A DNA stretch of 64,000 bases, taken from NCBI GenBank assembly GCA_008632985.1, contig QPGO01000051.1, positions 363,046 to 427,045 on the forward strand, in the 5' to 3' direction. Both the position numbers and the translations under genes were made by a program. This document shows positions 27,175 through 60,162 of this stretch, one piece after another; within the stretch, counting starts at the first letter, position 1, and every line of letters begins with the position of its first letter. The notes beneath the pieces were generated by a model. That model had not been told where the DNA came from, made no database searches, and saw only the letters and a program-made list of their open reading frames with translations. Origin of the DNA: Psammoneis japonica. Taxonomy: Eukaryota.

Positions 27175-29550
27175 TGTCGCACATGGGACAGTGATGCCCA
27201 CTGCTCTGCTCCACACCTGCGCTGACATCGAGCCAGAGATTCATGTTCTTCCTCCAGCGGTGCCTCCTCCAAAGCTGCTTGGTTGTCACCCACCACTTGC
27301 TCAATTCCTGACATCATTGTGAATGGCGCCTTTGCACCCAAGCAGATTTTGGTCAGNTCTACGTGTGATATTTAAAAAAAATTGTCCAGACTCGCTGTTT
27401 TGCGAAGCCCCAGACGTTTTATATAACAAATTTATAGAAACAATAATGCGCCAGTTACATTCTTCAATGTCTGAAGAATGTAACTGGCTAAGTAAAAAAT
27501 GATGTACTTCAATCATGTGCGAGTTTGTGCGTTCGCAAAATTGCCTCATTTTCTGTTGGCGATCATTGACATTTTAATTACCGTATAATTTTAGTACGGA
27601 GCTCGCACGTAGAAGTCTACGGGCCCAATGTCACACGGATTCCCACCTACCGGTACGTCTGGAACGCGTCGTCAATCATCTCCTCAGGCAGTCGAGGTGG
27701 TGACAGCATTGACTGGGGCAGGGCAGAAAACCAAAGTTCCTTCCAAGTCATCATCTTTGTTTGAAACATTTTCCACTCTGCAGGTGCATGTGCAAATCCA
27801 AGCAATCCCTGCAATCACAGCACACTCTTCTTCTCTCTCTGGTGCTCTGGCTTGCCCAACAAGCAGGGTGTGCTGAAAAACACGCGGCCCCACACAGTGC
27901 AAACCACGCCGACTGAGCAGCACCTGCAGCTGCAATCATTCTTTGAGCTGCACTGCACTGCCCTGTTGTTGTGGTTTCATCCTTTCACTTGGACCCCACG
28001 TTTGTGTCTTTCCTGCCAATGGGAGTCAGCGGCCAAGCTTTTCTTGCACCCCACCTGGTGTGCCCGTCTGGATGTTCTCATCCAACAAAGCCCCTTGCAT
28101 GATGCCAAGAATGGGGACAAATCTTCTGCAACCCCCCTCCCCATCTTGTGGCTGATTCAGGAAGCATCTCTCACCCACTCAAGCGCAACGGCAATTGGCT
28201 GCCTGTGCAAGGCCTGCCACACCTCTGACCTCCCCTGGTGGCGAACAAAATGAGTGACAAATCAAGCATTTCTCTGGTTTTGAGGTTGGGGGCATGTCAG
28301 TTGCTCCACCTGCTTCAGCTGGATCCATGGGTCAAGGTGTGGCACCAATGCAAATCTCACAAAAAAGGTCTTGAACACGGCGCTGCTTGTTTCCTCTCTC
28401 AACAACAAGGTGGCACATTGGGGTGCTGTTTTGAGTGCACCACTTCATCACATCAAAGATTGGAAGATGTGCCGCAGCTCTGGGTGGGACCTTTCACTGC
28501 TGCACTTTGACTTCAGAGTTTTTTTTGTCATGACACACATTTCTTCATCCTGCCTTCTGCGCTCTTTTCATGCTCCCCATTTTGTCAAGTCAAAGGCTTT
28601 TCACTTCATGCATTTGTGAAAACAAAAATGGGCTGCACGTGTTCTTCAATGTCTGAAAGGAAATGATGTGCTTCAAGTGTGGAGAAGGTTGTGTGCATTC
28701 ACTCAACTGCCAACAATTTTTCCGCAGGCACAATGTCACAAGCAGCTCCACCCGGGGCCCGGGGCTCAAATGCATCAGGAGACAAGATGACCCATCTGGA
28801 GCCTGCCAGGCAATCTTTTGCTTGGCCCCATGTCAAGTGGTGGTCTTTGCACTCTGGATCTCCAGAGCTTTCTGTGGACAACTTGTGCTTTTTTGTAAGT
28901 GTGCACACTCTTCCCTTTTCAATGTGCCTTGACTTTTCTCTTGTGAAGTCACCAATTGCATCCCACTGATGCTGCTGAGGTCTCTGTGCTTGTAGACAGC
29001 TGACTTTTCATCTCTGTCATCATGGACCATCTGCTGCAGCTCACCTCTCTTCACATGGAGAGAGCCACATCAATTGTGACAAACAAAGTTTCCTCAATGC
29101 ATCAAGTCCAGCAGACATCAGCAAGATGCACAATGCCCCCCCAACTGTGCTCCTGTGGAAGGAGTCGGTCGCACATTGACGTTGAGGTTGTTTTTCCTGC
29201 TGACCCAAGCAATCCATTTGATTCCCATGCCTGTGTAGAAAGTGATCAGGCTGATGGGTTCCACCAGTCTGTCGCATCAGGAACCACTTCATCAATTGCT
29301 GTCAACAAGGATAAAAACACTGAACAAGTCAATGTTTGCATGAGCAACGACGGTGTTGTGAGGAACGAGACTCATCGGTGCCTTCACAGGATGAGCAATG
29401 AAGTTGACCAGGTGTGCTTCTTGTTGGACGACGACCGCTGTGCTGGTGGCAAAGATGGTTGCCGTCACCTCAATGGCGGCACTGCACAAATCATGCCATT
29501 CATTGGCTTCTTGGAACTCGTTGTCATGTGGCATCACGGCCAGAGCATTG
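27175..29550. other. TpA-depleted block 3 (unidentified decayed sequence), interrupted by a TA-rich MITE
   Basis: 27175-27355 and 27671-29550 are nearly TA-free. The inserted segment 27356-27670 is TA-rich. Confidence 0.85.
27356..27670 (+). mobile_element. MITE, TA-intact copy, left part lost in an assembly gap; TSD GTCA
   Basis: GTCA at 27352-27355, then G and an N gap at 27357. The right end TCCCACCTA...CTGGAACGCGTC ends at 27670, followed by GTCA. The body aligns to the reverse complement of about 57441-57750. Confidence 0.85.
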
Positions 29551-29895
29551 GGACTGTAACTCCCCTTCTTCAGATTTCACACTAAAATACTCGCCATATG
29601 ACACACACCAGACCTCTCATCAAGCCTCACCAGGGTATGACAGTCAAGAGCTTCTAGTCTCTCGAGCGCTTCAGAATTATCGTCGTGCATAAAATAAAAT
29701 TAAAAAGCCAGCGTTTCTGTAAGCAGTGCTATTTGGAGTAGGTTGGAAAGTTACTTTAGTTACCGTTTGAAAAGCTAGACTATCCTCGCTCTCTTAAGCA
29801 AAGCTCTTTTTTTAATGCGGCTACAGGATCACGTTCGTGTTTCTTATTTCACTGCTAGTCTACCGGTATAGCGGGCGTGTATTAGCTGCAGCATC

Positions 29896-31245
29896 TTATG
29901 CAAATCGACCACTCTCACGAATCTCCTCGCATCTCTGCAGAAAAACTTCGGCAACGCTATTTTTCCCAATCGGACTGCGATACTGAGAATGCCAGTGATA
30001 CGCAAAGACACCGGGGAAAAAGGTTTCAACAGTTGTTGTTGCGTTTGCGTGTCCGGTAAAGAAATTGAGCCAGTCATGCAAGCCGTCGACACGGAGAGTC
30101 AAGTCGTTCACCATGCCGTGTTTCAAGTCAAAGAAAACCCAGTGAGGATCCATGTACGCAGATGGTAGCATTTCCACATTGCCACCGTGCCTCGCAAGAA
30201 TATTAAACACTGTTTTGGGATGGTAGGTCTTGCAGAGACGGCTGACGGTATCAAATTGCCAAAAGCGACCTTGTAGGCCATACCTTACAAGCGTTTCCGC
30301 GTTTGGACTCTTATGACGCATATGAAACACCGCCGTATTGGCGTAGTATTTGTTTGACCATCGGTAGAAAAAGTCTCGTGACAGCAGCGGTTTGAGATTT
30401 CTAAGCAACAGGACGTCCGTGTCAAAATAAACGCCACCATACGCCGCCAGAACCAAAACTCGAATCATATCAGAATAGCGAGTTTGCTGCTTTCGACGAT
30501 AATCAGAATGGGTTGATGAGACAGCGGAGTCCTTTTCAATGTTTGTAGTCAAATCTGATATGAGTCGTTGTTTGCTATGTAGAATATCCTCCAGAGCCGG
30601 AAAGTTGTCTTGTATGGTATCAAAGAGCTCTGTCATGTTGAGTATGTTGACTGAAAAGTATTCTGAAGACCCATACGGGGCCAGCGCATCTCGGAGAATT
30701 TTCTGAGACACATGATTTGTTGTCCAGAGCTGCAGCTTTGCACATCCCTGCTGAGAGTAAACCGTAGACAACATGCCGAGTTTCGCAGTGTCCGGAAGCG
30801 CGTCTTCTGATGCCCAAAATGCATGAAATAACACGTTTGGAGTTTCACACGAGAGATCCTCGTCCTTATCAGTTGTTTGCTGCAACGCATTCATACAGGT
30901 GGTGAATACTTCTGTGCTCCCTTTTCGAATTTCTCGCTTCATGACCCGGACGTTATCGATCTGTGCACAAGCACTTCTCGGAGTCAATCGACTGGGATCG
31001 TTACTAGAAAATCCATAAAAGAGATCGTCCTCAACAACAGGATCGTAAGAAGGACTCCCACTGTTTAGACTGGGATGGTCTATGCCGCCAACATGCGGAG
31101 CTTGGAGAATGACACTGAGCTGAAATGACACGAGGGAGGCCAACCCGAGAATCAACAGCATAAACCATGCGGATGGTATTCCTGGAGGACGCTTCTTGGG
31201 AGAAAATGATGCTCTGATGTTGTTTCTTTTATACTTGAGGCACAT
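29896..31245 (-). CDS. DXD-motif glycosyltransferase (GT32-like), type II membrane protein
   Basis: N-terminal TM (WFMLLILGLASLVSF) and motifs FHAFW, SDMIRVLVLAAYGGVYFDTD and FAYHWH. The start codon is inferred; the ORF is open upstream to 31416. Confidence 0.85.
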   Translation of the reverse strand: MCLKYKRNNIRASFSPKKRPPGIPSAWFMLLILGLASLVSFQLSVILQAPHVGGIDHPSLNSGSPSYDPVVEDDLFYGFSSNDPSRLTPRSACAQIDNVRVMKREIRKGSTEVFTTCMNALQQTTDKDEDLSCETPNVLFHAFWASEDALPDTAKLGMLSTVYSQQGCAKLQLWTTNHVSQKILRDALAPYGSSEYFSVNILNMTELFDTIQDNFPALEDILHSKQRLISDLTTNIEKDSAVSSTHSDYRRKQQTRYSDMIRVLVLAAYGGVYFDTDVLLLRNLKPLLSRDFFYRWSNKYYANTAVFHMRHKSPNAETLVRYGLQGRFWQFDTVSRLCKTYHPKTVFNILARHGGNVEMLPSAYMDPHWVFFDLKHGMVNDLTLRVDGLHDWLNFFTGHANATTTVETFFPGVFAYHWHSQYRSPIGKNSVAEVFLQRCEEIRESGRFA

Positions 31246-31574
31246 TCCTTCCCTCTTAGTATCTTGTACCGTAGCAATAGGAAGTATTATAAAAACGAGA
31301 CGCATAAACAACAAAGAACGTTGCGATCGTTGGTCGTTGGGTGCGTGTACGGGTATTATTACTGGGTCGTGGCAAAAAGTGCCGCAGAAATGAGTCGCGG
31401 ATAACGCGCCACGCATGACACAAGCACGATGACAAACGCGCGACCAACGCGCATCAAAGGCCGTTCATTGAGATAGAAGAGACGGGCGTTTCCCATGATG
31501 GTTTCGAATGTTTTGTCATTCCTTGATCCTGAGCTTTGCTGACAAGTTGGGTTACAGTTGGGTTCAAAAGCAAA

Positions 31575-33680
31575 TGAGGTGAGCAGCAAGCCACACTCGT
31601 CTCACTCTGTTGTCTCTTGACAGAGACACTGGGGCGCGACGTCGTTCTTCCAAAAAGAGGCTTTCAGTGCACAAAACCTGGCACAGAGACATCTCAGGCA
31701 GGAGACAGCTCCAAGAAGCTGTCACAGCCCCAAAAAGTTGCATTTGCAGGAACAAAAAGTTGCAGCCATGCAAACTCCTTGCCCCAAACAACTGCGGTGG
31801 TTGCACACACTTCTTGTGTTTTCGTTTGGTGCACCAGCTTCTCTGCATCTGCCGAAAACATTTCTGCAACAACGCTTTTTCTGTCACACTGTGATGCTGT
31901 GAATGACAGCAATGTGCAGACACACAGTGTTGGTGGAAGTTGCTGGGTGGGGTTGTTGTTCTGCAAAGAAGTGTGCGGCCTGTGCCAAGCAGTCTGCCAG
32001 TGCTTGAGATGCGCGGCTGTTGCTGACTTGGTGGCCCACATGAAAAAACAGCCCGCCCAGCAGCATGGGCCCAGCATGTGCTCAGATGGCAATGGCTCCA
32101 GCACCAGCATGTGATCAGATGACAACAGCTCCAGCACACATCTGCCATGTCTTGATGGCACATCACAAATGAGCCCGTGCATGACGGCAACAAGATTCGC
32201 AGCACGGCTGTTTGACAAAGCAAGACATCAGAAGATTTCCAAAGCAGTCTCCTTGGCATCAACGGTGGGAACCCCCTGCTGATCGTTTCCTCCTGCCTGA
32301 CTGGGTGGCAACAGGCAGCAACATTTGATGCTTGAGTTTGAAGCCACATTTGCTCAAATCATGTCGTCGCTGCTCAAATTTGCATTGCTTCACATTGAAG
32401 CAGCACAGCCCAAGTCAACAAGTGCACACCAGCTGCACTCAGGTGCAGATGCAGGGTCATCGTGTCACCAGCCCCAGCCCAGAGACAGAAGCACTGGGGC
32501 CTGACAGGTCTTGGGGAGCAGCCCAAGTCCACAGAAGATGCCCCTGCTGTCAGACTGTGATGCTGAAAACACCAACAAGATGAGCAAACACACCAAAGCT
32601 GCAAAAAAAAACACAACCTGCCAAGCAGGCAGACAACTTGAAATGTGCAGTGGTTGCCAACATCATGGCTCACATCAAAAAACACCAAGTGTGGGTCTGT
32701 GTGTGCAGGTGGCAACAGCTCCACATTCCCACCATGTCTCCTTGATGGCACATGTCAAATGAGCCCAGCATGCTGGCAACAAGAGCCACACAGCTGCTGC
32801 TTGACAAAGTTGTCAGATTTCCAAAGTCTGAGCATTGACAACAGGAACTTCTTTGACATCCCCCCCCGGGGTGGCAGCATTTCATGTTGATTTTTCATTT
32901 GCTCAAATCATGTTGCTGCAGCTCAAATTTTCACCTTTTTTGCACTGCTTCAAATTTTAACTTCTCACATTGAAATCTGCCCAAAAATCAAGCACACATG
33001 ACCAACAGTGTTTGGTTTGGGGGGCAGCAAACACATCAGATGCAGATGGGCAGTGCAGTGAGGCCATGCATCCAGCGCTGGACAGCTGTGCACACTTGGA
33101 CCTGGTGCACAAGCAGATCCTACAGGGCAGCTCAAGGCTTTGGCCTGTCTGTTGCCAGCTCATGCCAGCACTTGGGCATGCAAAGCCAAGCTCCAGCAGC
33201 TGCAAGTGTGCTGCAGCTGCTGGTCTTCAGAGTGATCTGCCAACAAGAAAGAAACACATCCTTGATTTTTGTGCTGTGCTGAGTGCATTGTCAGAAGAGA
33301 GATGCAAGACCAGCAGCTGTCCAGATGTTGAGCTTGTCATTGCATGACAGCATGCAGAGAATTTTGCAGCAACATGTTTCTCGACACATCTGTTTTTGAG
33401 ATGACGGCCCAGCTGGGGGCTGGAGCACGACCTGAGAGCACTTGCACAATCCACACAAGGAGCATGGTGCTCTTTGACTTTTTTGTTGCCACGCCAACAA
33501 TTTCTTGTCATCAAGCCGTTCATGTGCACTTCTTGCAGCCACTCGGTGTGGTGGGCTTTTTGCTCCACAAGTCTCGCAATGAAAAAAAAAAAACAGTGCC
33601 CCCGCCATCTGATGTGGGAGCATTTTGCCGGCAATGCTTGGTGTGCATGCCACTTTTTGATCGTTCTTTCTTTGGGGGGA
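31575..33680 (-). pseudogene. TpA-depleted block 4: at least two tandem decayed paralogs of the adjacent GT32 gene
   Basis: RRHGGNVELLPPAHTDPHLVFFD (about 32670-32745) matches intact RHGGNVEMLPSAYMDPHWVFFD. VSAHCCHSQHHSVTEK (about 31880-31930) matches VFAYHWHSQYRSPIGK. Internal duplication CATTTGCTCAAATCATG at about 32347 and 32896. Confidence 0.8.
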
Positions 33681-33897
33681 AGGGATGAATCTATGAAGAG
33701 TTGAATTCCATGCACTGCAACACAACATGAGAAACTACATTTGCTGCATGATTTTTTACGGCAATGACGGTTCGGAAATGATGACATCCGTGACCCAGAA
33801 TCATTCACGAGTAATAATTAGGTAATGAGCTTTTCCGATCGTGACGTGGGCCTTCTTTCTGCATTATCGCGCCACTTCATCATTTTTCGAGTTCACC

Positions 33898-34634
33898 ATG
33901 GCGGTCTTCACCGACAAACTATCATCATCATTACTTGCAGGGCTGCTGTCGGCTCTTCTGATTTTGTCGAATTATCACGGCGTTGAATCGTTTGTGGTGA
34001 CCCGAACGAGCCATGTTGCTACGACGAAATCAACAAGAACAATCATGCCAACATCGGTCTTTCGCCCTCATTCATTTGATTCGATTCATTCGTCGCTCCA
34101 TATGGCTGAAGTAGATGAGAAAGAAACGTCAAAGCTACCTATGCTGCTTGATCCTGGTACAAAAGGAGGTGCTTTGTTCCTGTCTTTGGTCCTATGTAAG
34201 TTCATACAATACTACTTGAATTGCTCGAGCTCCCACATTTCAATTGTGCAGCGCTGATTGCACAACGAGTTGCAATTCCCGCACTTTAATTTTCCTGATC
34301 CCTGAAGGATTGCTTTTGTTATGATGCTCACTCGCCCACTTTCATTCGGCACTTTCTGTCTCTAGTTGTCGTTCCAATTCTATTCTATGTGTTTGTCACG
34401 CAAGTCGGTGGAGTGGATGGAATTGAAGCGGGCAAGTGGATTGGCGTGGGCTTTACGCTTGTCACATCTCTTCTCTGGGTTAGCTCTTACATCTTCCGCG
34501 TGGCGACAAAAGATATGACCTACGCGAAGCAACTCAAAGATTATGAAAATGCCGTCATTGCCAAACGACTAGAGGAGCTAGACGAAGATGAGGTACAGGC
34601 TCTTGTGGAAGATATTGAGCGCGACGACTTTTGA
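33898..34634 (+). CDS. DUF3007-family plastid membrane protein, 2 exons (33898-34195 and 34366-34634)
   Basis: A GTAAG..TAG intron restores the frame. Motif WVSSYIFRVATKDMTYAKQLKDYENAVIAKRLEEL. Bipartite presequence VES|FVV. Confidence 0.85.
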
Positions 34635-44900: not shown

Positions 44901-47900
44901 AATGCAAGTCTGAGACTTGTCGAATGTCGCTTCCAGCTCTTGGAAAGGGAGAAAAGTACGTTCTCACATCTCACAAGTACGAAGGAATCGGTAGGAAAGA
45001 TGCAATCGCACGCTTTCTCGAGACGTCTACATTCGGAATTCGAACTTCTGACGTAAACAACTGGGAACTCCCAAATAAGGGTATTTGGATTATGCAACAA
45101 ATGTCGTTGCCAGTCACGTCTCACCGAGAGTACTGGAGATCGCGAGCAAACCCCCGGGTAAGTTCTATAATCAGAATGATTATCTCTTTGTCGGTTGCAG
45201 GTTCTCGTTGTGCTCACACAGAGATTTTTTTGCGTTCTCTGCAGTGGCAACTTTCACAGACAATTGGAAAATCTACGTCACCATGCAGTAAGTTCAGTCG
45301 CTGGCGCAAGTTTACCTTGACAACCAAGGACCTTCGTGTCAGAGATTCGCCGGTGTCAGGAGAAGTCTTCATCAAGAATACTACTTTGGCAATCGACGCG
45401 GACGGAAAAGCCGTCCCAAGTGGCCCTTACAAGATAGTTGTAGACGGTGAGTATGCTTGGGCCTCAATGCGACGTTGCCTTTCCCCCTCGTGTTCATCGC
45501 TCAAGCTTTCATTTTCGAATTTTTGTGCTTGTAGGACGTGTCAGAACGGTAGTCAAGGACATTGAATGGGAGTATCCTCTGACAAGGAATCGTTTTCCAA
45601 CATGGGATCCAGAATTTGGGTATTTCATCTGCAGTGCCCCGTACGACTCTGTCGGTGGCCAATTGCATCTCAGAACGAAACCATACAAGGGAAATCCTGA
45701 CGGCGACTGCCAAAGGGTATCGACTGGAAATCCAGCTCTTCGCTTTAATAAGCTCCCTCGAAAGCTTTTGCGTCTTTCGGGCAATAGTTTGAAGACGCTC
45801 CGAAATGATATGTACTTGCTTCAAACTGAGCTGTCAGGCGAGCTGTGTAACTCTCTTCCGCCACATGCTGAAGATTCTGATCCTGCCGTGTATGCTCTTC
45901 ATCCCACAATAGGGTTGGTTCAATGGGATCCATCCCTTTCTTTGGAGCAAAATACAATGGATTCACCGACCCGTGATGGTGGGGGCTCCATTGTGCGCGC
46001 AACGGGCGGCACTACTGCTTGCTTCAATGCTCCACGAACGTTCACAAACGCTGCCAAATGCATTCTCTCCAATCAAGACACGGCCTGTGGACCGGCAAGT
46101 TCCACAACCGGCAGCACCATCGTTTGTGGATCGCCAGGTAAGTCTTGTTTTGCGACCAGCGCGAGCGCGGGACCCTTTGCTCACGTCTCACAATCCGCTC
46201 TCTCTAAAATTGATCCCCAGGAGAAGTTGCTTCTGATCCAAGACTAGGCCCAGAGTATGATGTCGCGAGTGATGTAAAAAGGGACACAACAGACCCTGAG
46301 GATCTTGCTCGTCAGAGAGAAACAGTATGGACAATGGTTGCCCTTTTTTCGCAAGATCAGCTTCGGCAACGAATGGCTTGGGCTTTAAGTCAGATTGTGG
46401 CCTTGGCCAAGGAATCCGTCACTGTGCAAGACACTGACACAGAGGCCTTCCTTCAATTTTACGACATTTTTGTCAGAAATGCGTTCCGCAATTATTTTGA
46501 TGTGTTGCGGGAAATCAGTTACTCTCCATTAATGGCGGAAAATCTGTCTTACCTCGAATCAAAGTCGGCTGCATATGTATTGGAGAAAACAGACCAGGTG
46601 GAGTTTGCCGACGAGAACTTTGCACGCGAGATTATGCAACTTTTCAGTACAGGGCTGGTGATGCTAAACGATGATGGCACACCGATTCTCAACTCCAAAG
46701 GCCGGCCCCAGAAGGTATACTCGAACGCCGACATTAGATCCGTTTCTCGAGTTTGGACAGGATTTCTCCGGCAACATCGTCGTGGCAACATCGAGTCTAG
46801 CGACGGAGAGAATCGAATCGACCCAATGAAGATAAATCCGGAGTGGCACGACCGCTTCCCAAAGTCAGACTTGTATGGAGGATTCATCGGTGATGGATAC
46901 CCACTTTGCGTTGACCTGCCCAAGAGGAACTTTCTCAGGAAAGGCGCAAAGTATCGACTGCTTGGTAGCTCACCAATCCCGGAATTGATGACGGACGATG
47001 AAAGATTCAAGCAGAGATTCGTCCTCAGCAAGAAGACGTCATCTCTACACAGTCAATTGTGCAACAGAAAAGATGACAGGTGTCAATACCGACAAGAGGT
47101 AGTGTTGAGCAAAAACCTTCGGTGCGACGGGGACGAATGCAAGGTAGACACGGTGCGCGTTGTTCAAGTATCATCTGGTATCTTCTACGAGTATATTCAA
47201 CCTCCATGCGTTGAACACTCGTTTTACTCCGGTGCAATGAAACTGAACCTGAGACGCGATGACGAGCCTGCAATCTGTGGAAATCCCTTGCTGCCAATTG
47301 CGACTTCTGCTTGCTGTGAAGAGCCGGACGGGTACACTGATGCAATTTCAAAGAACTTGTATGAGATCGAGCGCATGACATTCGAGACGCAAGACGCACG
47401 GTGTCGAGCGATGGGAAGAGAATCGTGCGAGTATTCCAGGGTCGATGCGGGGTTAGAGTCATACCAAAACAACGTCGTCTACCACTGGGCGAAGACTCCA
47501 TGTACACTAAAGTTGAAAGTAAACCCTCATGGCGAAATTGCAGTAGTGCATACGATGCGTCGTGGCGACATCAAGGTACGACATGTGGACGAAAGTACAA
47601 CCAATTTCTTCAAGGTCCAATGGGACGATGGCTTTCCAAAAGCATCAGCAAACTCCTGTGGCGACTGCGCCGTCATTGATGAGAATTGTTGCTTGTGTGA
47701 AACTCGAGTCAAGGAAACCATGGTGTTTTCTAGTGTGCCACGGGTGACGGCACAAATTGTTTCAGCTTTGCACATTGGCGCACCAGACCCAGAATCCTTT
47801 GATCACGGTACCTACATACCTACTGTTGTGAATGGTTTTCTGACCGTACACAACAAACCGTCCGGACTAGGGCCCGATACAATTTTCGAGGTCGTTGATG

Positions 47901-50572
47901 ACACTCGACGCACTCGCTTTTTGAAGAATGCTAGATCTGTTGTGCAGGTGCAAGGCGGATTTTCCTTTCGAAATCCCGTCCACTTTATGAGTCTCATCCC
48001 CTCTGAAAGCAATGCTCGTGATGTCATGTACGAGGTGGACGCGTTGCTTCGGCATCTTTTGTACCACAGGTCCGTGTATGTGTCTGTTGGGCATCGTCTG
48101 TAGATCGATACACTTTTCACTCTAACACTCTTGTTCTCAACATTTTCTGCAACACAGCAATACTCCTCCATTCTTATGCACTCGCCTTATTCAGCGGTTT
48201 GGTATATCGAATCCGAGTCCACGATATGTCGCCCAGTGTTCGAAAGCATTTAGAAAGGGAATCTATAACTCTAAAGGACTTGCGTTTGGCACAAAGGAGT
48301 ACGGGGATCTCGCGGCGACGGTTGCGGCAATTCTACTAGACCGCGAAGCTTTCTCCTCTGTGCTCGACGCGGATCCGTCTCACGGATCGATCAGAGAGCC
48401 TCTCTTGAGAGTCATAAGCTTGATGCGTAGCATGAATTTCAAACCGAGACCTCGCGACGGAGTTCCTACTCCATGGGCCATATTCAAGGACATGAACGTA
48501 TTTATTGGCCAGATGGCACACGAAAGTGAATCTGTTTTTAGGTGCGTCTCGACTGTCCATTACATTGTTGTATTTGATCGGCTCCCTTTTCTTCTCCCCT
48601 AATGTCGTTTCTTTTAGCTTCTTCATGAGCGAGTACTCGCCCGATGGGCCTGTTTCCGCTGCTACCCTCGTGGCACCAGAAGGTCGGCTTCTAGACGTAC
48701 GTACCCACCTTCTTTCATTACGTTTCTTCCTTTTGATTTGAATTTGTGCAATTGTGTATATCCTCATGTTCGTCGCTGTTTCTTTCCTTTCTTACAGATG
48801 CCAAAAAACATCAACGTACGTACTTCGGTTTTCATCGTCCTTTTTGTTCGGTTTTTGCTTATCGTTGCTTTTTCCTTTGTCAGGTGATAAATGGATTGCA
48901 TTCTCTCATCAAATATGGGCTTTCGTCGTGTGCCTATGGTTTTGGTTTTGATAGTCAAAAAATCACCGATAGAGCTTGCATCGATGACGGTAAATTTGCA
49001 TTTTCAACCGGCGAGTTGAAGTATCAGTCCCAAAGAAGCACTTCAGAAGGCGTTGTGAACGAGCTTGCTACTTTGCTCACCTCTGGCCGCCTGAGTGCTG
49101 AAAGCCGAAAAGCCATTCTCAGAGAATACGAAAAATCGCTCTTCCAAGTCGATGCCGGTGCTGCGGTTCGCGTCGCCCAGCAACTAATTACCGCCACGCC
49201 CGAGTTCCACACTACAAACACAGTGAAAACGAGTGGAAAGACAAGAGAAATGCTGAAGCTGCCTTCTGCTGCAGACGGACACGAATACAAGGCGGTTGTC
49301 ATGCTCATGTTAGAGGGAGGATGCGACTCTTTTAATATGCTCGTTCCCCATCAATGTCTCCCCCATAATGGGCGAGCCGACGCCTACTCGCGTTACGCGG
49401 CAGCAAGAGGCTCCGCTCGTTTGTCGCGACAGAATCTTCTTCCAATTCCTTCGGGTGGCCATGCCGGCTGCAGTAGCTTCGGACTCCACAAAGAACTACC
49501 AAGCCTGCAGAAGCTCTACAAAGACAAAGAGTTGTTATTCTTTGCCAATGCTGGAATCCTCGGAAAGCCAACTACAAAGGAAACGTTTGAAATAGATACG
49601 CCAACCCAACTCTTTGCTCACAATACACTTCAACGTGAAGTAAGAGTTTTGGATGTGTTCAATAGCGCTTCGGGAACGGGAGTTCTGGGGCGACTTGCCA
49701 ACGCCTTGTCCATTAGTGGAAAATCCGTAGGTTCTATTTCAATTGACACCAGCTCGATCGCTTTGGTTGGCAAGCAGGGAGTTTCAGATGCGCCGATAAC
49801 ATTGTCCCACACCGGCATTAACCGATTCATGCCGATTGGCTCCGCTACGATGACGAAAGCGAGTATGGAACGAGCCATCGGAGACCTGAATAATGCGACG
49901 GAACCTGATAGTGGCATGATGGCCAGTACGTGGTCAACCTCATTGCTACAATCCTTGTTCCAGAACGAGAAACTGTATCAGGCTCTGAAAGCAACCAAGG
50001 TGAGCCACAGTTTCGGAGAATCCGATTTGGGAAAAAAGTTCGAGATCGTCGCGAAGCTGATTAAAACTCGTAAAGTCAGAGGGAGGAATGTGGACGTCTT
50101 TTATCTTGAACACGGTACATCGTGGGACCATCATACTGGATTGAAGGACGGTCTTACAAAGAATTTTGCAGAGTTGGATGCAGCCGTGGGGTCTTTTGTT
50201 GCTGAGTTAAAGAGTCAAGGAGTGTATGACAGCACCACTGTATTCCAAGTAAGCGATTTCGGAAGGACATTGACTGCAAATTCGGGAGGTGGCACTGATC
50301 ACGGATGGGGAGGGAATTATTTCATGTTCGGTGGATCTGTAAAGGGTGGGCGCATCTTGGGAGAGTATCCAAAGGATTTTTCGGAAAACGGACCCCTGAA
50401 TTTGGGTCGCGGTCGCATCTTGCCCACTACTTCGTTTGATCAAATTTGGCCAGCAATTTCCCAATGGTCTGGAGTTGACAAGGACAAACTGTTGAACAGG
50501 GTTTGTCCGAACCGAGGTAGCTTTGAGTCCCACTTCGAGTCGGACAAGCTTTTCAGGACTGGCGGGTCGTAA
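42000..50572 (+). CDS. Giant secreted multi-exon protein: G8-like N-terminus, carbohydrate-binding-like modules, DUF1800 and DUF1501 domains
   Basis: Signal peptide. DUF1800 motifs QDQLRQRMAWALSQI, DENFAREIMQLFSTGL and GSIREPLLRV. DUF1501 motifs LEGGCDSFNMLVP, LFAHN, WDHH and SDFGRTLTANSGGGTDHGWGG. Consecutive same-strand ORFs are separated by GT..AG intron-sized gaps. The first two introns were checked in frame; the rest are assumed. Confidence 0.85.
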
Positions 50573-53009
50573 CTTAACATGTAGAGATTGACAAAAGCAA
50601 GTGCATTGCGAATGTTTTGAAATTCTACCAAAATGATAGGAACGCAGTGCTAAAGGTTAGTTGAGGTTAAATTGTGCATTGAACGTCTTCTCTTGACCCA
50701 GAGGCTTCTCCGTTCTTGAGTGACACTGCATCATTTTGCTTTCCTCAGGCAAAGCCATCACCATCATGCACTCATGTAAAAACAATGAAGCAAAGGAACA
50801 TCAGCCTTTTCTGCTGGGGACAAACACCAAGAATGACATGGCTGCCATCCCCTTCCTCCCTCAAGCAATCCCTGTAAAGGGCGCCACACCAAATCCATGT
50901 CGAGCTTCAAAGCACCTCTTCAAGGCCAATCTTGCCACATTGTGGCAACAATGGGTGATGAAGACACTCTGCTGGCAGCGATCCATCAAGGAGCATGTCT
51001 GGGTGTGGCACCATGCCTCAACACACTGGACAACTGCAGCTGGACTTGCAGAGCCTGGGGGTGGTGGTGGCGAAAATGCACTGTTGTCAGCAACTTGGCA
51101 AGGGAACAGCCTGCTCCTCATTTTGGCTTGCCACCAAAGGCACCTGGGCATCAATGCACGCCACATTGCTTGGACATGCTGCGGCAATGCTGGGTGGACT
51201 CCATGACAGCTGATGCTGCCACCAAATGAATGAAACCCAAGTGGGGGGGGCATGTGTGCAGCGCACACCCTTCAAGTTCATGCACCTGCTGCTGTTGCAA
51301 CAGCTGCTGCATCCCAAGACAGCATGCCTTCATGTGCAGGTCAATTCTTTGGCTTTGCATCAAAAACAATTTCTGCGGTCACCGCTGCTGACTCGTTGCC
51401 CGCTGTGATTGTGCCTTCTCAGGGTGCACTCAAATTGTGGTTTGTTCATGGCACTGGGCAGTGGTCAAATTGCCACTTCAGAGCCAGCGCTTTCTTTTTT
51501 GTCAAAAAGGTGACTCGAATTTCTGTCCCATTTGCCGCGTGACAACACATGGGGCCAAAGCAATTTTGGGGCCCTGCCCTTGGGCTTTTTGAGAATGAGC
51601 CACATGAATGAGCTGACAAACTCAAGGGAAAGCATGCCAGTGTTGATGTTTCCATTCTTCTGAACAAATGCAACAGCAAAAAAAGGGTTGGGGTTGGGGT
51701 TGGGGCAAGGGAAAAGGAAATGGGAAAAGCAAATGGGGCAGGGAGAGGGAGAGGAAAAGGGAGAGCAAAATGGAGAGGAAGGTGTGAGGGCTGAGGCTGG
51801 GGCTGACGTGACCAGGGTTTGAGCTGCGATTTGGGCTCAGGCGTTGGGTGACCAGGGCTTGGGCTGTGATTTGAGCTGGCATGTTGGGGCTGGCATCAAA
51901 ATGACTGGCACACGCTGTCCCTGATGTCAGCCTGTGTGGCAAGTCAGGTGAGGTGTTTGTTGTCTGTGATTGAGGGTGAAATGTTTGCTCAGCTTGCTGG
52001 GTCTGTCAGTTTTGCAGCTGGAGCTGGGGGTGCTTTGTCTGTGTGGAAAGCTTGCTCAGCTTGTGTTTTGGCAGTTGAGCTGAGGTGTTTGTTGGCTGTC
52101 ATCTGGAAAATGTCATTGCTCTTGTTCAGAGCCCAATCTTTCTTGTCAAGAGTCCCACCCTCTTGACAAGGGTTCATCAATGCTGCAAAATGCATTTTGA
52201 CAATTGTTTCAACATGCCAAGCAGGGCTTGACACTCAAAACAAACCAGCCTCATTGTGGGTGCAATCTTGACAACAAGTCACTTCCACCAATTTTGTCTC
52301 ATTTTGACAATCAAAGCAACCCACCAGGTGGGAAATGACACTCAATGAAGCCCATTTTTTCACTTTTTCTTTCTTGTTCAGTGTCAATTTGCTGCAATTT
52401 TCTCACATTGTTCGCAACACTGCAATGATGCTCGTTTGCACTGACAATGACTTTGCAATGCTGTGTCTGTTCTTCCATTTTGGCTTGATCTGTGTCGGCT
52501 CTAAAATCTAATTTCTGCACCCAAAGGGGCTCCTTTGTTTCCTGTCCCTTGTTCACATTTTTTCTCTCTCCCATTCCAAGTTCCCTCTTGTCCTCCACAG
52601 CCACCACTCCCTTTTGTCCCGCCCTTGGTTGCTCCTTTGCAATTGTTTTCTCTCCATTGCTCAGTTTGGTTTTGCCCATTTGGGGATTCCCCAAAATTGC
52701 AAGGTCAAGGGGGAATCACCTTGCCCTTTTGGGGAATTCCCAGGAAATGAGGGTAATTTGGCGGGAAGGAATGACCAAAAGGGCTCAGGGGAGGGGAACA
52801 AAAAACGAATGGAATGCAGTGATGTGCGTCAATTACAGACAGGCGGGTGTGCTTTCATCCTCATGGCGACCGGCGCCCAGCATGGTGTGCGGAAAAAACG
52901 ATGCACGGCCATGACGGATGCATCAACAAATCAACACAAAGCGGCCCCTTGTGGCAGAGGAAGGGAAGAACTGACTTCACCATTGAATCATGCATGTCAA
53001 CATTGCTCA

Positions 53010-53420
53010 CATGTGGCTCTGCTTTTGCCTCAGCCTTTGCTCTAGAGCCATTGCAGTTTGCATTTGTGACCACACGACACAAGAAGAAAAAAATGACACA
53101 CTGCATTCTGCACATGAGATGGGTCAAAGGGAAGAACGAACATCATCAATCAATCCACCACATTTTTCATTGACCTTGCAAGGCTCTGCTTTTGCCTCAG
53201 CCTTCGCTCCAGATGCCTCATGGTTTGCATTTGTGGCTGCATGACAACAGAGTGATTCCAAACGATCCGCTTCATTCTGCACACAAGATGTGTCAATTGA
53301 AACAAAAACCATGACCATTCAATCCTCCACATTTTTGTCAGCTGTGCACGGTTCCACTTTTGCCTTGAACTTTGCCACAAACGCCGCATGGCTTGCATTT
53401 GTGACCGCAGGAAAGAAAAA
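53010..53420 (+). repeat. Degenerate tandem repeat with a period of about 168 bp
   Basis: GGCTCTGCTTTTGCCTCAGCCTT...TTTGCATTTGTG at about 53015 and 53182, with a diverged copy at about 53350. Confidence 0.7.
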
Positions 53421-53812
53421 CAAGCACAACGATCAACGCACTGGTTTTCTGCTCAACATCATCTGTCACACTTCCACTCATTTTTCATTTTACACTGTGG
53501 ATCGTAATCTCATTCACTGGATTGACTGGCGTCATTTTTGTTTGACAAGAGCCATCACAAATGGGGCGCAAATGCTCCATGGCGTGTTGCCCATTTTTGG
53601 CTGCGGTCGTTGGTCGATGGTTGATTGTTGTGCATCTGGTGTGTGGCTCCACACATGTCGGCATGCGGAATGCGTGGAAATGTGTGAGATGGGAAGCACG
53701 GGGAATTGATGTGTCATTTTTTGTTCATGCATTGAGTGCGTGTGTGACAAACGGCAATTCGTGGCGATTCCCCGGAAGCTCACCCTTCCCGTGGAAAAAC
53801 AGGGTAAAAGGT

Positions 53813-54202
53813 GACATGCTCCAGGTCCAGGTGGGACCTCGCACCACTGAACTGTGACATCGACAGTTTTTTGAATCACATCGCATGTCGCGCACGTAGA
53901 TTTCCACGTGATTTTTTTGATGTTTTGTGTCATTTTACGGTGCACTCATTTGGCGATCCGTCCAACAACTTTTGACATTTTTTGTCACAGCGCAATTCTA
54001 CAATGTCTCAAGAATTGCGTGGGGCAGGTGCATTTGCAAAAACGTCGAGTGGCAAGAGGCACAATTGTGCCACAAACTTGGCCGTTTGTTTGATGTTGAA
54101 GACAAATGTGTCCATTGATTGAATTCTCGCACTGCAGAGCTCGCACGTGGAATTCTACGAGCCCAATGTCACACGGAGTCCTGCCTGTGGATGGAAGGTG
54201 TC
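53813..54202 (+). mobile_element. 390-bp MITE; TSD AGGT
   Basis: Left end GACATGCTCCAGGTCCAGGTGGGAC, right end GTCCTGCCTGTGGATGGAAGGTGTC. AGGT at 53809-53812 and 54203-54206. Colinear with 55071-55460. Confidence 0.88.
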
Positions 54203-54359
54203 AGGTGGCAATCCCAGGGAATTTTGAGAAATCACATGGCAAAACCAAACTGAGCTCCATTGGGTGCATCCAGAAGTGTTTCATTTTGGCCATGACCCCA
54301 CTTTTGCACACTCCCCTGTTCTCATCCACCATGCAGGCTGACACCTGAGAAGACAGAAC

Positions 54360-54942
54360 GGGTCTCCGTTTTTCTGGATTTCCGGGTTTCCATTTTTCAG
54401 GAATTTTGGGTTTCCGTTTTTCCGGATTTCCAGGTTTCCATGTTTCCGGGTTTCCGGATTTCCAGATTTCCGGGTTTCTGCATTTCCGGATTCTGGGTTT
54501 CCGTTTTTCCGGATTTCCAGCTTTCCGGGTTTCCGTTTTTCAGGATTTCTGGGTCTCCATTTGTTGGGATTTCTTGGTTTCCATTTTTGCAGATTTCCAG
54601 ATTTCTGGGTTTCTGGATTTCCGGGTTCCCGGGTTTCCGCATTTCCGGGTTTCTGCATTTCCGGATTTCCGGGTTTCCATTTTTCCGGATTTCCAGATTT
54701 CTGTTTTTCTGGGTTTCCGCATTTCTGGATTTCTGGGTTTCCATTTTTCTGGATTTCCGGATTTCCAGGCATCCGTTTTTCCAGATTTCCGGTTTTCCGT
54801 TTTTCCGGATTTCCATTTTTTGGGTTTTCTGGGTTTCCGTTTTTCAAGATTTCCAGATTTCTGGGTTTCCGCATTTCCGGATTTCTGGGTTTCCATTTTT
54901 CCAGATTTCTGGGTTTCCATTTTTCTGGATTTCCAGGTTTCC
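54360..54942 (+). repeat. 9-bp minisatellite (TTTCCGGAT / TTTCTGGGT / TTTCCGTTT variants)
   Basis: Continuous 9-bp periodicity that produces the repetitive NPEKRK / FPDFRV pseudo-ORFs. Confidence 0.9.
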
Positions 54943-55070
54943 AACCAAAGGGCGCATGGTGTTTGTTGCTGTCTGGTGTCAGTGCATGCACAGGCGGGGT
55001 TGTGTCTCATCTTTTGTTGCTCATGTGCAAACCATGCAAGCAATTCCGCTTTTCTGCAACACCAGGAGCA

Positions 55071-55460
55071 GACTTGCTCCAGGTCCAGGTGGGACCCAAA
55101 GCTGCTGAGCTGTGACATCGACAGTTTTTTGAACAATGTTGTGTGTTGCGCACGTTGATTTCTGCATGACTTTGGCAACATTTTGTGTCATTTTGCGGTG
55201 CACTCATTGAGCAATCCATCCAACAACTTTTGTCATTTTTTGTCACAGTGCGACTCTGCAATGTCTTGAGAATCATGCAGGGCAGGCGCGTTTGCAAAAA
55301 CGTCAAGTGGCAAGAGGCACAATTGCACCACAAACTTGGCCATTCAATTGATGTTGAAGACAAATGTGTCCATTGATTAAATTCTTGCACTGCGAAGCTT
55401 GCGCGCAGAGTTCTGTGGGCCCAATGTCACACGGAGTCCTGCCCAGGGCTGGAGTGCATC
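55071..55460 (+). mobile_element. 390-bp MITE; TSD AGCA
   Basis: Left end GACTTGCTCCAGGTCCAGGTGGGAC, right end GTCCTGCCCAGGGCTGGAGTGCATC. AGCA at 55067-55070 and 55461-55464. Confidence 0.88.
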
Positions 55461-55464
55461 AGCA

Positions 55465-56030
55465 ATGTGTGTGGACCAGCTTTTGTTGGCATGGCCAAGC
55501 ATCTTGTGCACATCTCTTTTTTCCAGAGATGTCTTGCCACCTGCAATTGAACACACCTGGCATTGCCAGCAGGTGGCATTCCCCCATGTTTGCCACCTTT
55601 TTTCCTGTTGGAGCAACACTCTTTGATTGTGTCTCAGTTGCTCATTGACACGCGAAAGTTGAGGAAGACCGCCTCAACATGAATGGCTGCGTTGCAAGAA
55701 TCTTTGCTGCAATTTGGCCTCACAAAGTTGCCCCAAAGTGTGCGCTTGATTGACGCAAATGTTTTCAACATTTGTCATGCTCTTTCCAACTGCAGAGACA
55801 CCCATCATTCCAAGTGACTCAAGGCCAGTCACTTGATGAATGTGGCTTGATGCAGCCATGGGAGCGATGTTTTTCTGCCACTCAGTGGCAACAAAGCCAA
55901 TTCTGACACACCCAATCCTCCTGCAAGGCATGCGCATGGGCCAAGCAGCACAATGGGAAAATGAGAGAAAGCAGCGAGTTGGCAGAAAAAACAGCAGAAG
56001 CTGTTGTTGAGGGGATGCCCATCAATGGAC
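55465..56030 (-). pseudogene. Possible relic of the C-terminal part of a non-LTR retrotransposon ORF
   Basis: RIGCVRIGFVATEWQ resembles the IGW...GFIATEWQ segment recalled from diatom non-LTR elements. Heavily decayed. Confidence 0.4.
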
Positions 56031-57284
56031 CCACCCGCCCTTTGTGATTTTGCACCCTTTGCTGCCATTTTGCACCCTTGGCCATTTTGCACCCTTTGTG
56101 ATTTTGCGCCCTTGGCCACTTTGTGCCCTTTGTGATTTTGCGCCCTTTGACGCCATTTTGCACCCTTTGTGTTTTTGCGCCCTCGGCCATTTTGCACCCT
56201 TTGTGATTTTGCATCCTTTGTGATTTTGCGCCATTTTCCACCATTTTGCACCCTTTGTGATTTTGAGCCCTTTGTGGTTTTGCACCCTTTGCCGTTTTGC
56301 GCCCTTTGTGATTTTGCGCCCTTGTCCATTTTGCACCCTTTGTGACTTTGCACCCTTTGCCGCCATTTTGCACCCTTGTCCATTTTGCACCCTTTGTGAT
56401 TTTGCGCCCTTGCCCATTTTGGGCCCTTTGTGATTTTGCACCCTTTGCCGCCATTTTGCACCCTTTGTGATTTTCAGCCCTTTGTGATTTTGTGCCCTTT
56501 GCCATTTTGCACCCTTTGTGATTTTACACCCTTTGTGATTTTGAGCCCTTGTCCATTTTGCACCCTTTGCCACCATTTTGCACACTTGGCCATTTTGCGC
56601 CCTTTGTGATTTTGCACCATTTGCTGCCATTTGGTGCCCTTTGTGATTTTGCACCCTTGGCCATTTTGCGCCCTTTGTGATTTTGCCCCCTTTGCAATTT
56701 TGCACGCTTCGTGATCTTGTGCCCTTGTCCGTTTTGCACCCTTTGTGATTTTGCACCCTTTGCCGCCATTTTGCACCCTTGGCCATTTTGCGCCCTTTGT
56801 GATTTTGCATGCTTTGCCGCCATTTTGCACCCTTTGTGATTTTGCGCCCTTTGCCATTTTGCGCCCTTTGTGATTTTGCACCCTTCGTGATTTTGTGCCC
56901 TTGTCCGTTTTGCACCCTTGTGATTTTGCACCCTTTGCCGCCCATTTGCACCCTTGGCCATTTTGCACCCTTTGTGATTTTGCACCCTTTGTGATTTTGA
57001 GCCCTTGTCCATTTTGCACCCTTTGCCGCCATTTTGCACACTTGGCCATTTTCTGCCCTTTGTGATTTTGCACCACTTGCTGCCATTTTGCGCCCTTTGT
57101 GATTTTGCACCCTTGGCCATTTTGCGCCCTTTGTGATTTTGCCCCCTTTGTGATTTTGCACCCTTTGTGTGCAACACACAGCTGCTGACAAGAGTTGATG
57201 TGTCACGGCGATGTGTTGCAGCCTTCAAATGTCACAAAGGGCATGACAAAAAACAACCTTTTGTCTGCATGCATGCTGCATTGT

Positions 57285-57355
57285 GAATTCACAGCGGAGT
57301 GGTTCATCGCAACCATCAGGCAGGAGGCCAGGGGTTCGAAACCCTGAGTGGGAGT
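57285..57355 (+). ncRNA. tRNA-like Pol III promoter relic inside the TRIM
   Basis: A-box-like CAGCGGAGTGG (TAGCGGAGTGG if TA is restored) and B-box/T-arm CAGGGGTTCGAAACCCTG about 40 bp downstream. No clean cloverleaf. Confidence 0.5.
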
Positions 57356-57440
57356 TGTCTGCAGCAACGTTGATCACTGTCGAACGCACAAAACTCTGTG
57401 CAGTTCTGTGTGTTCCTTCGCACGCACCCACACTGTTCCG

Positions 57441-57836
57441 GACGGGTTCCAGTCCCAGGTGGGACTTTTTGTGACATTGGGCCCGTGGAATTCTGCGCGC
57501 GAGCTCCGCAGCAAAATCATCAAGCAATGGACACATGAATGATCGCCAACAGAAAAAGAGGCAATTTTGCGAACGTGTCTCCTCCTCCACACTTGAAGTG
57601 CATTCTTTGCAGCATGCCCGGGTGCACTCTTCAGACATTAAAGAACACACCCAGTGCATTTTTGTTGACACAAGTGCAGACAACAGAAAGCCTTTGGCTT
57701 CGCAAAACAGGCAGTGTGGAGCAATTTTTTACAATGGAACACGTAGAAATGCATGTGCAAAACATGCGGCGGATGACAAAAAACAATCATGTCACAGTTC
57801 AGCAGCACGAGGTCCCACCTAGAGCTGGAACACGTC
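57441..57836 (-). mobile_element. 396-bp MITE nested in the TRIM; TSD TCCG
   Basis: TIRs GACGGGTTCCAGTCCCAGGTGGGAC and GTCCCACCTAGAGCTGGAACACGTC. TCCG at 57437-57440 and 57837-57840. Confidence 0.92.
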
Positions 57837-60072: not shown

Positions 60073-60162
60073 CCCTCTGTGATTTTGCGCCCTTGCCCAC
60101 ATTGCACCCTTTGTGACTTTGCACCCTTTGCCACCATTTTGCGCCCTTTGTGATTTTGAGCA

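Follow-up and report, generated by a model that had tools for sequence, protein, structure and literature searches.

TpA-specific hypermutation probably accounts for TA-free islands of transposon-derived and non-genic DNA in a diatom-like genome

Hypermutation of the dinucleotide TpA has been reported once before, in a 2026 preprint on the chlorarachniophyte Bigelowiella natans (Mettrop et al., bioRxiv 10.64898/2026.01.13.699255). In mutation-accumulation lines of this alga, two regions of integrated virus gained 231 new mutations; 230 of them were A>G or T>C, all of these on TpA according to the authors, and the rate of new mutation was raised about 1000-fold. The genome, of roughly 95 Mb, contains 124 clusters poor in TpA and rich in CpA and TpG, and TpA-poor coding sequences are enriched in reverse transcriptase (RT) and DDE transposase domains (same preprint). 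Two further systems leave comparable traces. In fungal RIP, repeats and mobile elements are mutated region by region through transitions, almost to saturation; certain dinucleotides are preferred, a diagnostic skew results, and neighbouring genes are spared. The changes of RIP are C>T, mostly at CpA, and make TpA. Decay of methylated CpG in silenced transposons converts CG to TG or CA, so that copies become discordant at single sites.

The window analysed here, a stretch of 64 kb, carries the long-term signature described for B. natans in a saturated form, in a diatom-like genome and on ordinary transposons. Five islands, adding up to 21,744 bp or 34% of the window, contain 42 TA dinucleotides versus 1,456 expected (0.03 of expectation). 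CG is reduced to 0.41 (523 versus 1,265), and TG and CA are raised to 1.69 (2,295 versus 1,355) and 1.74 (2,359 versus 1,359), respectively; TA, TG and CA thus lie far past the cut-offs of 0.43 and 1.52 given in the preprint. Outside the islands, the window has 0.58 of the expected TA and 0.97 of the expected CG. The pattern persists when tandem arrays are left out: in the resulting 15,588 bp of island DNA, TA is seen 33 times versus 988 expected, and the surplus of TG plus CA (1,482) nearly balances the shortfall of TA plus CG (1,553). Since AA (1.39) and TT (1.49) are enriched in the islands, there is no general AT>GC drift. The borders are sharp, as runs of 765 to 1,627 bp without TA adjoin DNA with 25 to 40 TA per 500 bp. 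Flanking genes and other intergenic DNA show a normal TA content (0.58 to 1.0 of expectation; 0.60 to 1.0 in six intergenic stretches outside the islands).

The likeness to B. natans also includes the dinucleotide and its products, TpA>TpG and TpA>CpA, derived here from sequence comparison, and the confinement to certain regions, beside which the DNA is normal. The two cases differ in several respects. The named relatives of the ZIP transporter in the window are all from diatoms, at about 50% identity, and introns are few in the genes. TA is down to 0.03 of expectation, a saturated depletion, as compared to 0.45 in the NCLDV region that is hypermutable in B. natans, and the islands take up about a third of the window, against the 124 clusters of the whole B. 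natans genome. The preprint describes viruses as targets; those shown here comprise a MITE, the relic of a LINE, part of a gene and tandem arrays. Finally, CpG is lost alongside TpA, a feature of which the abstract, Results and Discussion of the preprint make no mention. RIP is matched in its regional, near-saturating character but works in the opposite direction, since TpA is destroyed here and CpA and TpG accumulate: the RIP signature, a high TpA/ApT with a low (CpA+TpG)/(ApC+GpT), is inverted in the islands, the two indices being 0.034 and 1.98. In addition, the affected DNA includes single-copy sequence. Methylated-CpG decay, of which the islands bear the mark, is unable to remove TA, and would act there in parallel as another process, at a lower rate.

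The first island (1..2714; TA 3 versus 197 expected, CG 54 versus 141) runs off the window and contains 620-bp tandem units. The second (14870..16790; TA 2 versus 115, CG 20 versus 123) ends about 100 bp short of the ZIP transporter ORF. The third (27655..29500; TA 4 versus 114) begins where a MITE copy, c1, ends; 282 more bases without TA lie to the left of this copy. The fourth (31554..33691; TA 2 versus 130) includes, on the minus strand at 32605-32740, a dead fragment of a glycosyltransferase gene, the source of which is the neighbouring gene. The fifth (50876..64000; TA 28 versus 891, CG 379 versus 749) also runs off the window. Its make-up is mosaic: MITE copies c2 to c4 and tandem arrays with units of 8, 17 and 23 bp lie among single-copy DNA and repeats whose depth ranges from 5x to about 115x that of single-copy sequence. 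The stretch 50876-52043 counts as single copy, with a likeness of 80% in the read-contig comparison. A Tyr-free open frame on the plus strand (60880..62250) is a relic combining an HA (helicase-associated) domain with a stretch related to non-LTR retrotransposons (APE endonuclease / reverse transcriptase).

TA-free DNA is nearly devoid of TAA and TAG stops, and many long spurious ORFs result: 111 of at least 80 aa are found in the islands, with 7 Tyr in 12,503 residues. A Pfam search left 108 of the 111 without a match, two of the others having the HA domain and one a weak similarity to DUF4644; no viral genes were seen in the islands. Given this result and the single-copy part of the fifth island, a foreign or repetitive nature is established for parts of the islands only.

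The element present in several copies is a real MITE-like transposon, as attested by inverted ends, target duplications, an empty site and a high copy number. It is about 390 bp long (390-396), and 25-bp inverted ends, GACRYGYTCCAG..YAGGTGGGAC, are found on c2, c3 and c4 and at the right end of c1. The 4-bp target duplications have no fixed sequence, and the superfamily is not assignable from them. In four contigs, 53808 is followed directly by 54203; the 394 bases left out correspond to the element plus one duplication. Contig depths for the family sum to 76,000-188,000, versus about 56 for single-copy DNA, which as rough sums, rather than a copy count, point to thousands of copies. ORFs overlapping the MITE copies gave no Pfam match, and no transposase is present in the 64-kb window.

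The preliminary description had counted four copies; the window has five, the overlooked one being c5 (28465..28776, plus strand), which is decayed, has an internal deletion and contains no TA. Copy c1 (27358..27670, plus strand), the 5' end of which is cut by an assembly gap (N at 27357), has 24 TA and a GC content of 0.39, versus 0.47-0.49 in the other copies. Five TA are left in c2 (53813..54202, plus strand, 390 bp; target duplication AGGT at 53809-12 and 54203-06), four in c4 (57441..57836, minus strand; CGGA) and one in c3 (55071..55460, plus strand; AGCA). CG numbers 17 in c1 and 20, 12 and 17 in others. Identities of 82% between c2 and c3 and of 72% between c1 and c4 indicate old, diverged copies. 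Being TA-rich, c1 is regarded as probably an unmutated, young copy beside TA-free DNA. That it keeps all its TA though touching such DNA calls for an extra assumption, either the youth of c1 or an episodic process.

The preliminary description had drawn attention to a motif of the MITE, with two sites at which copies differ, and its readings are correct at every position. Site 1 is TA in c1 (27610-11), TG in c2 (54148-49), CA in c3 (55406-07) and CA in c4 (minus strand, 57495-94); site 2 is TA in c1 (27618-19) and c2 (54156-57), TG in c3 (55414-15) and CA in c4 (minus strand, 57487-86). The same holds for the further pairs TTTTACGG (53932) versus TTTTGCGG (55190) and TCTACAATG versus TCTGCAATG. 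The motif is not a chance occurrence, as three matches with at most 3 mismatches were obtained versus none in 100 shuffles; the fourth copy, with more than 3 mismatches, was recovered by BLAST. Sites 1 and 2 give only a glimpse of a pattern that extends over whole regions, and the region-wide absence of TA had been overlooked.

That TA is ancestral at these and similar sites, and TG and CA derived, as had been proposed, is the best-supported reading of the sequence comparisons. Majority letters of the family were taken from 40 of the 626 differing-letter rows of the read-contig comparison, which cover few sites and do not reach focal site 2. Among these, c2 reads CA at 53905 and 54009 and TG at 54121, where the letter restoring T-A is present in 98%, 99% and 95% of the family contig depth, respectively; over the seven sites private to c2, the family majority restores TA at three and removes it at none. 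The consensus of 11 loose contig ends at site 1 is GCACGTA. Of the TA of c1, 23 could be aligned with c4, where TA is found at 1, TG at 8 and CA at 6. In alignments of c1/c4 with c2/c3, the central part of which is not reliable, two island copies differ at several c1-TA sites, one having TG and the other CA, a discord requiring two changes from TA and more from CG, TG or CA; one site, TA in both c1 and c4, CA in c2 and TG in c3, takes 2 changes from TA versus 6 from CG. At other c1-TA sites the three island copies agree (TG at three sites, CA at one), and these would be explained equally well if the ancestor had TG or CA and c1 gained its TA. Between c2 and c3, 49 of the 61 transitions exchange one YpR dinucleotide for another, and 17 sites oppose CG to TG or CA; at 53994, the family majority is CG and c2 has CA. 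CpG decay is therefore active in the same DNA, and discord between TG and CA is, by itself, no proof of a TA ancestor.

Sequences other than the MITE support the same direction, as do the mutations seen in the B. natans lines, which were TpA>TpG and TpA>CpA. The TA of the glycosyltransferase gene is replaced by TG and by CA in the dead fragment at both comparable sites, and its CG by TG or CA at 5 of 7. Of 230 Tyr positions in homologues that align with the LINE relic, the relic has Tyr at none, His at 64 and Cys at 18; in column 316, Tyr in 20 of 27 homologues, the relic codon is CAT. Double differences, with TG facing CA, occur in four unrelated repeat pairs, at 5, 14, 2 and 4 sites.

Taken together with CpG decay, a TpA-specific hypermutation restricted to regions of transposon-derived and non-genic DNA probably explains the islands. 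In such a process, 5'-TpA-3' would be converted by an A:T>G:C transition in restricted regions of the genome; as TpA is self-complementary, an event on one strand would give TpG and one on the other CpA. Neither product would be a substrate any longer, so that the process would run to saturation and leave blocks without TA. Its targets would include the MITE family, the LINE relic, the dead gene fragment, tandem arrays and some single-copy DNA, and it would halt tens to a few hundred bases from neighbouring genes. The MITE copies could then be read as a time series, from the 24 TA of c1 through 5, 4 and 1 to 0. For the loss of CpG to TpG and CpA, the simplest explanation is that silenced DNA has its cytosines methylated, and through the two processes both palindromic YpR dinucleotides would drain into TG and CA.

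As to the chemistry, ADAT/TadA-type enzymes, the natural tRNA target of which is A34 after U33, belong with ADAR to the adenosine deaminases that prefer a 5' U or T (ADAT2/3, TadA): they turn A into I, read as G, which would give TpG and, from the other strand, CpA. Deamination of adenine after T by an enzyme of this type, acting on DNA, is a candidate mechanism, in which action on the chromosome is presumed here; amphioxus ADAT2 is reported to act on DNA (PMC10354150). A thymine-side lesion (T>C) is indistinguishable from it by sequence. By analogy with the proposal for B. natans, the process may be an active, targeted and possibly episodic genome defence.

Selection in place of mutation bias, with TA purged because it is read by a nuclease, as cryptic TATA-like promoters or in nucleosome positioning in silent chromatin, is improbable. 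Some viral genomes do avoid both CpG and UpA/TpA, and the residual TA is not random, TTAA making up 10 of 40 in the islands versus 69 of 1,705 outside. Yet frameshifted relics, tandem arrays and decayed MITEs are dead DNA, from which the removal by selection of 97% of one dinucleotide is hard to credit; moreover, the outcome, TG or CA, is random for each copy (8 versus 6 in c4), as under neutral, strand-symmetric mutation, and B. natans provides direct mutation data.

CpG decay alone, in which CG would be ancestral, TG and CA single changes and TA a double one (CG>TG>TA), accounts for the CpG level of the islands, the 17 CG sites of c2 and c3 and the family CG at 53994. It is nonetheless very unlikely, as it would create TA, which is almost absent; c1, the copy richest in TA, has no fewer CG than the others, the family majority is T-A at 53905, 54009 and 54121, and the six-change site is costly. 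Just as unlikely is the reverse, RIP-like course, with TG and CA ancestral and the TA of c1 and of the family arising by C>T at CpA. The sites at which all island copies have TG, or all CA, and the AT-richness of c1 would agree with it, but the RIP indices are inverted, a stochastic RIP would not place T-A at one site in 95-99% of the family depth, 21.7 kb of unrelated sequences must have been born without TA, and discord between TG and CA at single sites does not fit. A technical artefact, in which sequencer or assembler would misread TA that carries a modified base in silent chromatin, is most unlikely: modified bases do cause systematic miscalls on some long-read platforms, and the library type of run X1 is not on record, but the 31-mer Logan contigs of this run (longest 315,122), which need accurate reads, reproduce the island (a contig of 11,077 letters has 2 differing letters and 1 gap over the 1,669 bases at 50000-51669, though X1 may be the assembly source and so not independent), and a miscall would neither turn one site into TG or CA depending on the copy nor explain His and Cys codons at Tyr columns.

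The TpA-specific process would represent a rare and sharply readable form of genome defence, in which one dinucleotide is deleted from chosen regions, as a chemical mirror image of fungal RIP. TA-free islands may offer an easy way of annotating silenced mobile DNA in the genomes of algae, and transposon dating based on divergence would suffer a strong bias if YpR sites were kept in. The footprint in a diatom-like genome suggests a system older or wider than one lineage. The evidence is comparative and comes from one 64-kb window; on this basis it is conceivable, if rather doubtful, that TpA-erasing hypermutation is a genome defence common to distant SAR algae (Rhizaria and stramenopiles), instead of a peculiarity of one chlorarachniophyte, acting here on mobile or silent DNA of whatever class, to completion, and leaving with CpG methylation a YpR alphabet of TG and CA only. 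The abundant MITE family is material for measuring rate, sequence context and targeting and, were such a defence SAR-wide, its thousands of copies of graded age would be both a natural clock and a substrate library, giving the rate of the enzyme, its flanking-base preference (TTAA looks spared) and the targeting rule.

Five blocks of the window, at 1-2714, 14870-16790, 27655-29500, 31554-33691 and 50876-64000, are nearly devoid of the dinucleotide TA. All together they correspond to 21,744 bp, or 34% of the window, and contain 42 TA against 1,456 expected and 523 CG against 1,265, with TG (2,295 against 1,355) and CA (2,359 against 1,359) in excess. When tandem arrays are left out, the remaining 15,588 bp show 33 TA for 988 expected, 362 CG for 960, 1,661 TG for 956 and 1,770 CA for 993; the summed deficits of TA and CG (1,553) and the summed excess of TG and CA (1,482) are then near balance. 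Outside the islands, TA and CG are found at 0.58 and 0.97 of expectation, respectively, and TA ranges between 0.60 and 1.0 in six intergenic stretches. The islands have sharp borders: runs of 765-1,627 bp without any TA lie next to DNA with 25-40 TA per 500 bp, and they stop about 100-500 bp from the nearest ORFs. This set of TA-erased islands is the real feature of the region, and the two sites of a MITE motif, compared in the preliminary description, are a sample of a much larger pattern. Since AA and TT are over-represented in the islands, no general drift from AT to GC is present, and gBGC is ruled out.

Much of the last island is occupied by six minisatellite arrays (units of 8, 17, 23, 17 and 8 bp), located at 54350-54940, 56030-57170, 57990-59250, 60170-60900, 62370-63280 and 63320-63550. 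The 17-bp array is found in both orientations, at 56-59 kb and at 62.4-63.3 kb, and the variants of the minisatellites are mainly CG/TG/CA alternations. The segment 50876-52043, with a depth of 52-59 at 80% likeness, is single-copy DNA, wholly TA-free and without a Pfam match; candidates for its origin are an old diverged repeat, foreign DNA and intergenic host DNA that became included in the domain.

The MITE-like element is represented by copies c2 (53813-54202), c3 (55071-55460) and c4 (57441-57836, minus strand), all within the last island, and by c1 (27358-27670), whose 5' part is missing at an assembly gap. These are the four copies named in the preliminary description; its total of four proved too low, as a profile search identified a fifth, c5 (28465-28776), which is decayed and carries an internal deletion. 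The 36-nt motif finds 3 matches in the window at no more than 3 mismatches, against 0 in 100 shuffles, and the fourth copy, more diverged than this search allows, was recovered by BLAST. Each of c2, c3 and c4 is a short non-coding TIR element inserted in DNA, with an inverted end of 25 bp, GACRYGYTCCAG..YAGGTGGGAC. Their 4-bp target duplications differ (AGGT, AGCA and CGGA, respectively), so the three are independent insertions. Just outside c4, near 57335, lies a tRNA-like T-arm string, GGTTCGAAACC; ARAGORN and Rfam gave no matches and called no tRNA over 57290-57360, so a tRNA gene was rejected, and the string may be a decayed tRNA or SINE relic.

The abundance of the element was evaluated by placing on 50000-54350, at 80% likeness, 3,175 contigs of a public DNA run from the same organism, possibly the assembly's own source and hence not independent of it. 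By this placement, the summed contig depth over c2 is 76,000-188,000, compared with about 56 in single-copy DNA. Four contigs join 53808 straight to 54203, an empty site which lacks exactly the element and one target duplication. Taken with the TIR ends, the target duplications and the depth, this makes "MITE" a fair name. The DNA hosting c2 (52628-53650) is a repeat as well, its summed depth being 2,700-6,500 where single-copy DNA has 56; this unclassified middle-repetitive element includes three 167-bp tandem units (53015-53419). A single N, marking the assembly gap, falls at 27357, exactly at the 5' break of c1. The high-copy MITE probably broke the assembly there, and the join across the gap may therefore not be real.

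The preliminary description had read TA as ancestral, and TG and CA as derived, from the four copies; its letters and coordinates are all correct. Site 1 is TA at 27610-11, TG at 54148-49, CA at 55406-07 and CA on the minus strand at 57495-94; site 2 is TA at 27618-19, TA at 54156-57, TG at 55414-15 and minus-strand CA at 57487-86. The further pairs TTTTACGG/TTTTGCGG and TCTACAATG/TCTGCAATG are also present. The direction itself is supported by six concordant lines of sequence evidence: family majority, TA counts, discordant copies, pairwise patterns, a gene fragment and Tyr codons.

The family majority was read from 40 of the 626 variant rows of the contigs, with site 2 lying outside them. 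Among these rows, seven letters of c2 differ from at least 95% of the family depth. The majority restores T-A at 53905 (C>T, 98,866 of 100,915), at 54009 (C>T, 46,783 of 47,197; c3 has TG there) and at 54121 (G>A, 39,518 of 41,420; c3 has TA there), and restores CG at 53994, where c2 has CA; at none of the seven does the family-majority letter remove a TA. At site 1, 11 loose contig ends give the consensus ...GCACGTA. A CG ancestor, named in the preliminary description as evidence against its reading, does hold at some sites, though not at the ones it had listed.

TA counts per copy decrease from 24 in c1 (GC 0.39) to 5 in c2, 4 in c4, 1 in c3 and 0 in c5. For the 23 TA of c1 which align to c4, the latter keeps 1 TA and has TG at 8 and CA at 6. 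At several sites, both focal ones included, c1 has TA while one island copy has TG and another has CA, and one site is TA in c1 and c4, CA in c2 and TG in c3. Two points count against this reading: other TA sites of c1, where the island copies are all alike (TG three times, CA once), are uninformative, and the two subfamilies align poorly in the central part of the element. The comparison of c2 and c3 shows 76 differences, 61 of them transitions, 49 of which are changes from one YpR dinucleotide (TA, TG, CA or CG) to another: 14 TG<->CA double sites, 17 CG<->TG/CA and 4 TA<->TG. TG<->CA double sites were also found in three unrelated repeat pairs (5, 2 and 4).

Next to the fourth island lies a glycosyltransferase gene, of which the island contains a 136-bp dead fragment with the same polarity: where the gene has its 2 TA, the fragment has one TG and one CA, and TG or CA also stands in place of 5 of the gene's 7 CG. 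A tblastn search of the gene against the window returned the 45-aa dead fragment and nothing more; the sample is small. A frameshifted relic with HA (helicase-associated, PF03457) domains lies at 60880-62250 and 61002-61409 on the plus strand. The frame at 60880-62250 has no Tyr, and combines an HA domain with a segment akin to non-LTR retrotransposon proteins, resembling APE endonuclease/reverse transcriptase proteins of 1,500-2,000 aa; the HA domains may belong to that LINE family or be a host gene fragment. Opposite 230 aligned Tyr of homologues, the relic has 0 Tyr, 64 His and 18 Cys. In the five columns where at least 30% of homologues have Tyr, three relic codons are CAT, TGT or TGC, and two encode Leu/Phe. 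The 111 island ORFs of at least 80 aa, whose abundance is a by-product of the TA-poor composition, contain 7 Tyr, 642 His and 819 Cys among 12,503 residues. Pfam found the HA domain in two of them and a weak DUF4644 match in one, and no transposase or viral domain.

Selection against TA is an unlikely cause of its loss in dead DNA. Decay of CpG alone would produce TG and CA from CG, and CG is indeed reduced to 0.41 of expectation in the islands, with frequent CG<->TG/CA differences between MITE copies; because CpG decay occurs in the same DNA, disagreement between TG and CA is by itself no proof of a TA ancestor. The absence of TA from the islands and the family-majority letters nevertheless contradict CpG decay as the sole process, and TA loss is far more complete (0.03 of expectation against 0.41). 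The same two observations contradict a RIP-like gain of TA, and the RIP indices are inverted in the islands (TpA/ApT 0.034; (CpA+TpG)/(ApC+GpT) 1.98). The 31-mer contigs contradict a sequencing artefact, and so do copies that differ, TG against CA, at one and the same site.

The TA left in the islands are non-random in their flanking bases. For the 40 with readable flanks, TTAA accounts for 10, against 69 of 1,705 TA outside; TTA or TAA is contained in 29; and NTAT is found in none, against 474 of 1,705. The TA-removing process may prefer certain flanking bases, or new TA may arise with a bias; either might account for this skew.

The window is of eukaryotic origin and densely packed with genes; exons are long, and the host genes are of ordinary kinds. 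Named relatives of its ZIP transporter, among the best 120 matches, are all diatoms (about 44-53% identity), and the taxonomic placement rests on them; relatives of its peroxidase-ankyrin ORF do not exceed 73% identity. Since DNA of Bigelowiella natans would have matched the public proteins of that species, the lineage is another one, diatom-like. Consecutive long ORFs on the plus strand (42641-50572) end in DUF1800 and DUF1501 domains, two families known chiefly from bacteria, planctomycetes among them; the run probably represents one very large gene or two, interrupted by few introns. No TA-free island was found in 34 metagenome loci of at least 3 kb around relatives of the peroxidase, the longest TA-free gap being 363 bp; many of these loci are probably from one compact picoeukaryote, so the survey is a weak control, silent on diatoms at large.

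A precedent is described in a preprint on mutation accumulation in Bigelowiella natans (Mettrop et al., bioRxiv 10.64898/2026.01.13.699255). Of the 302 nuclear point mutations it reports, 231 were located in an integrated giant-virus region and a virophage region; 230 of the 231 were A>G or T>C, all of them on TpA by the authors' account. The reported rate is about 6e-7 per site per generation, and the mutations arose in some of the lines only. The genome is said to contain 124 clusters poor in TpA and rich in CpA+TpG, as well as 324 TpA-poor coding sequences in which reverse transcriptase and DDE domains are over-represented; as a defence, the authors propose an adenine deaminase of ADAT2-like type that acts on DNA (bioRxiv 10.64898/2026.01.13.699255). 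Full-text literature searches for the same phenomenon in diatoms or other protists turned up only this preprint; PMC4504042 was discarded as a TpA paper, the matching string being the word "Tpase".

TA-erased islands are thus of a kind reported once, very recently and in another lineage, and their occurrence here is new. The composition, borders and polarity described here, and the biology of the MITE, are shown; their most likely explanation is a process of transition at TpA, which would be confined to silent, largely transposon-derived blocks. A hit on either strand would yield TG or CA; because these products would be immune, the blocks would reach saturation, and decay of methylated CpG would feed the same TG/CA sink. 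Such a process may be actively targeted, may proceed by deamination of adenine after T and may have a role in defence. New MITE insertions would arrive with about 24 TA and lose them with time. Copy c1 is still intact, though it borders TA-free DNA on the right and, on the left, 282 bases without TA; it would be either a young insertion or the sign of an episodic process, as in B. natans.
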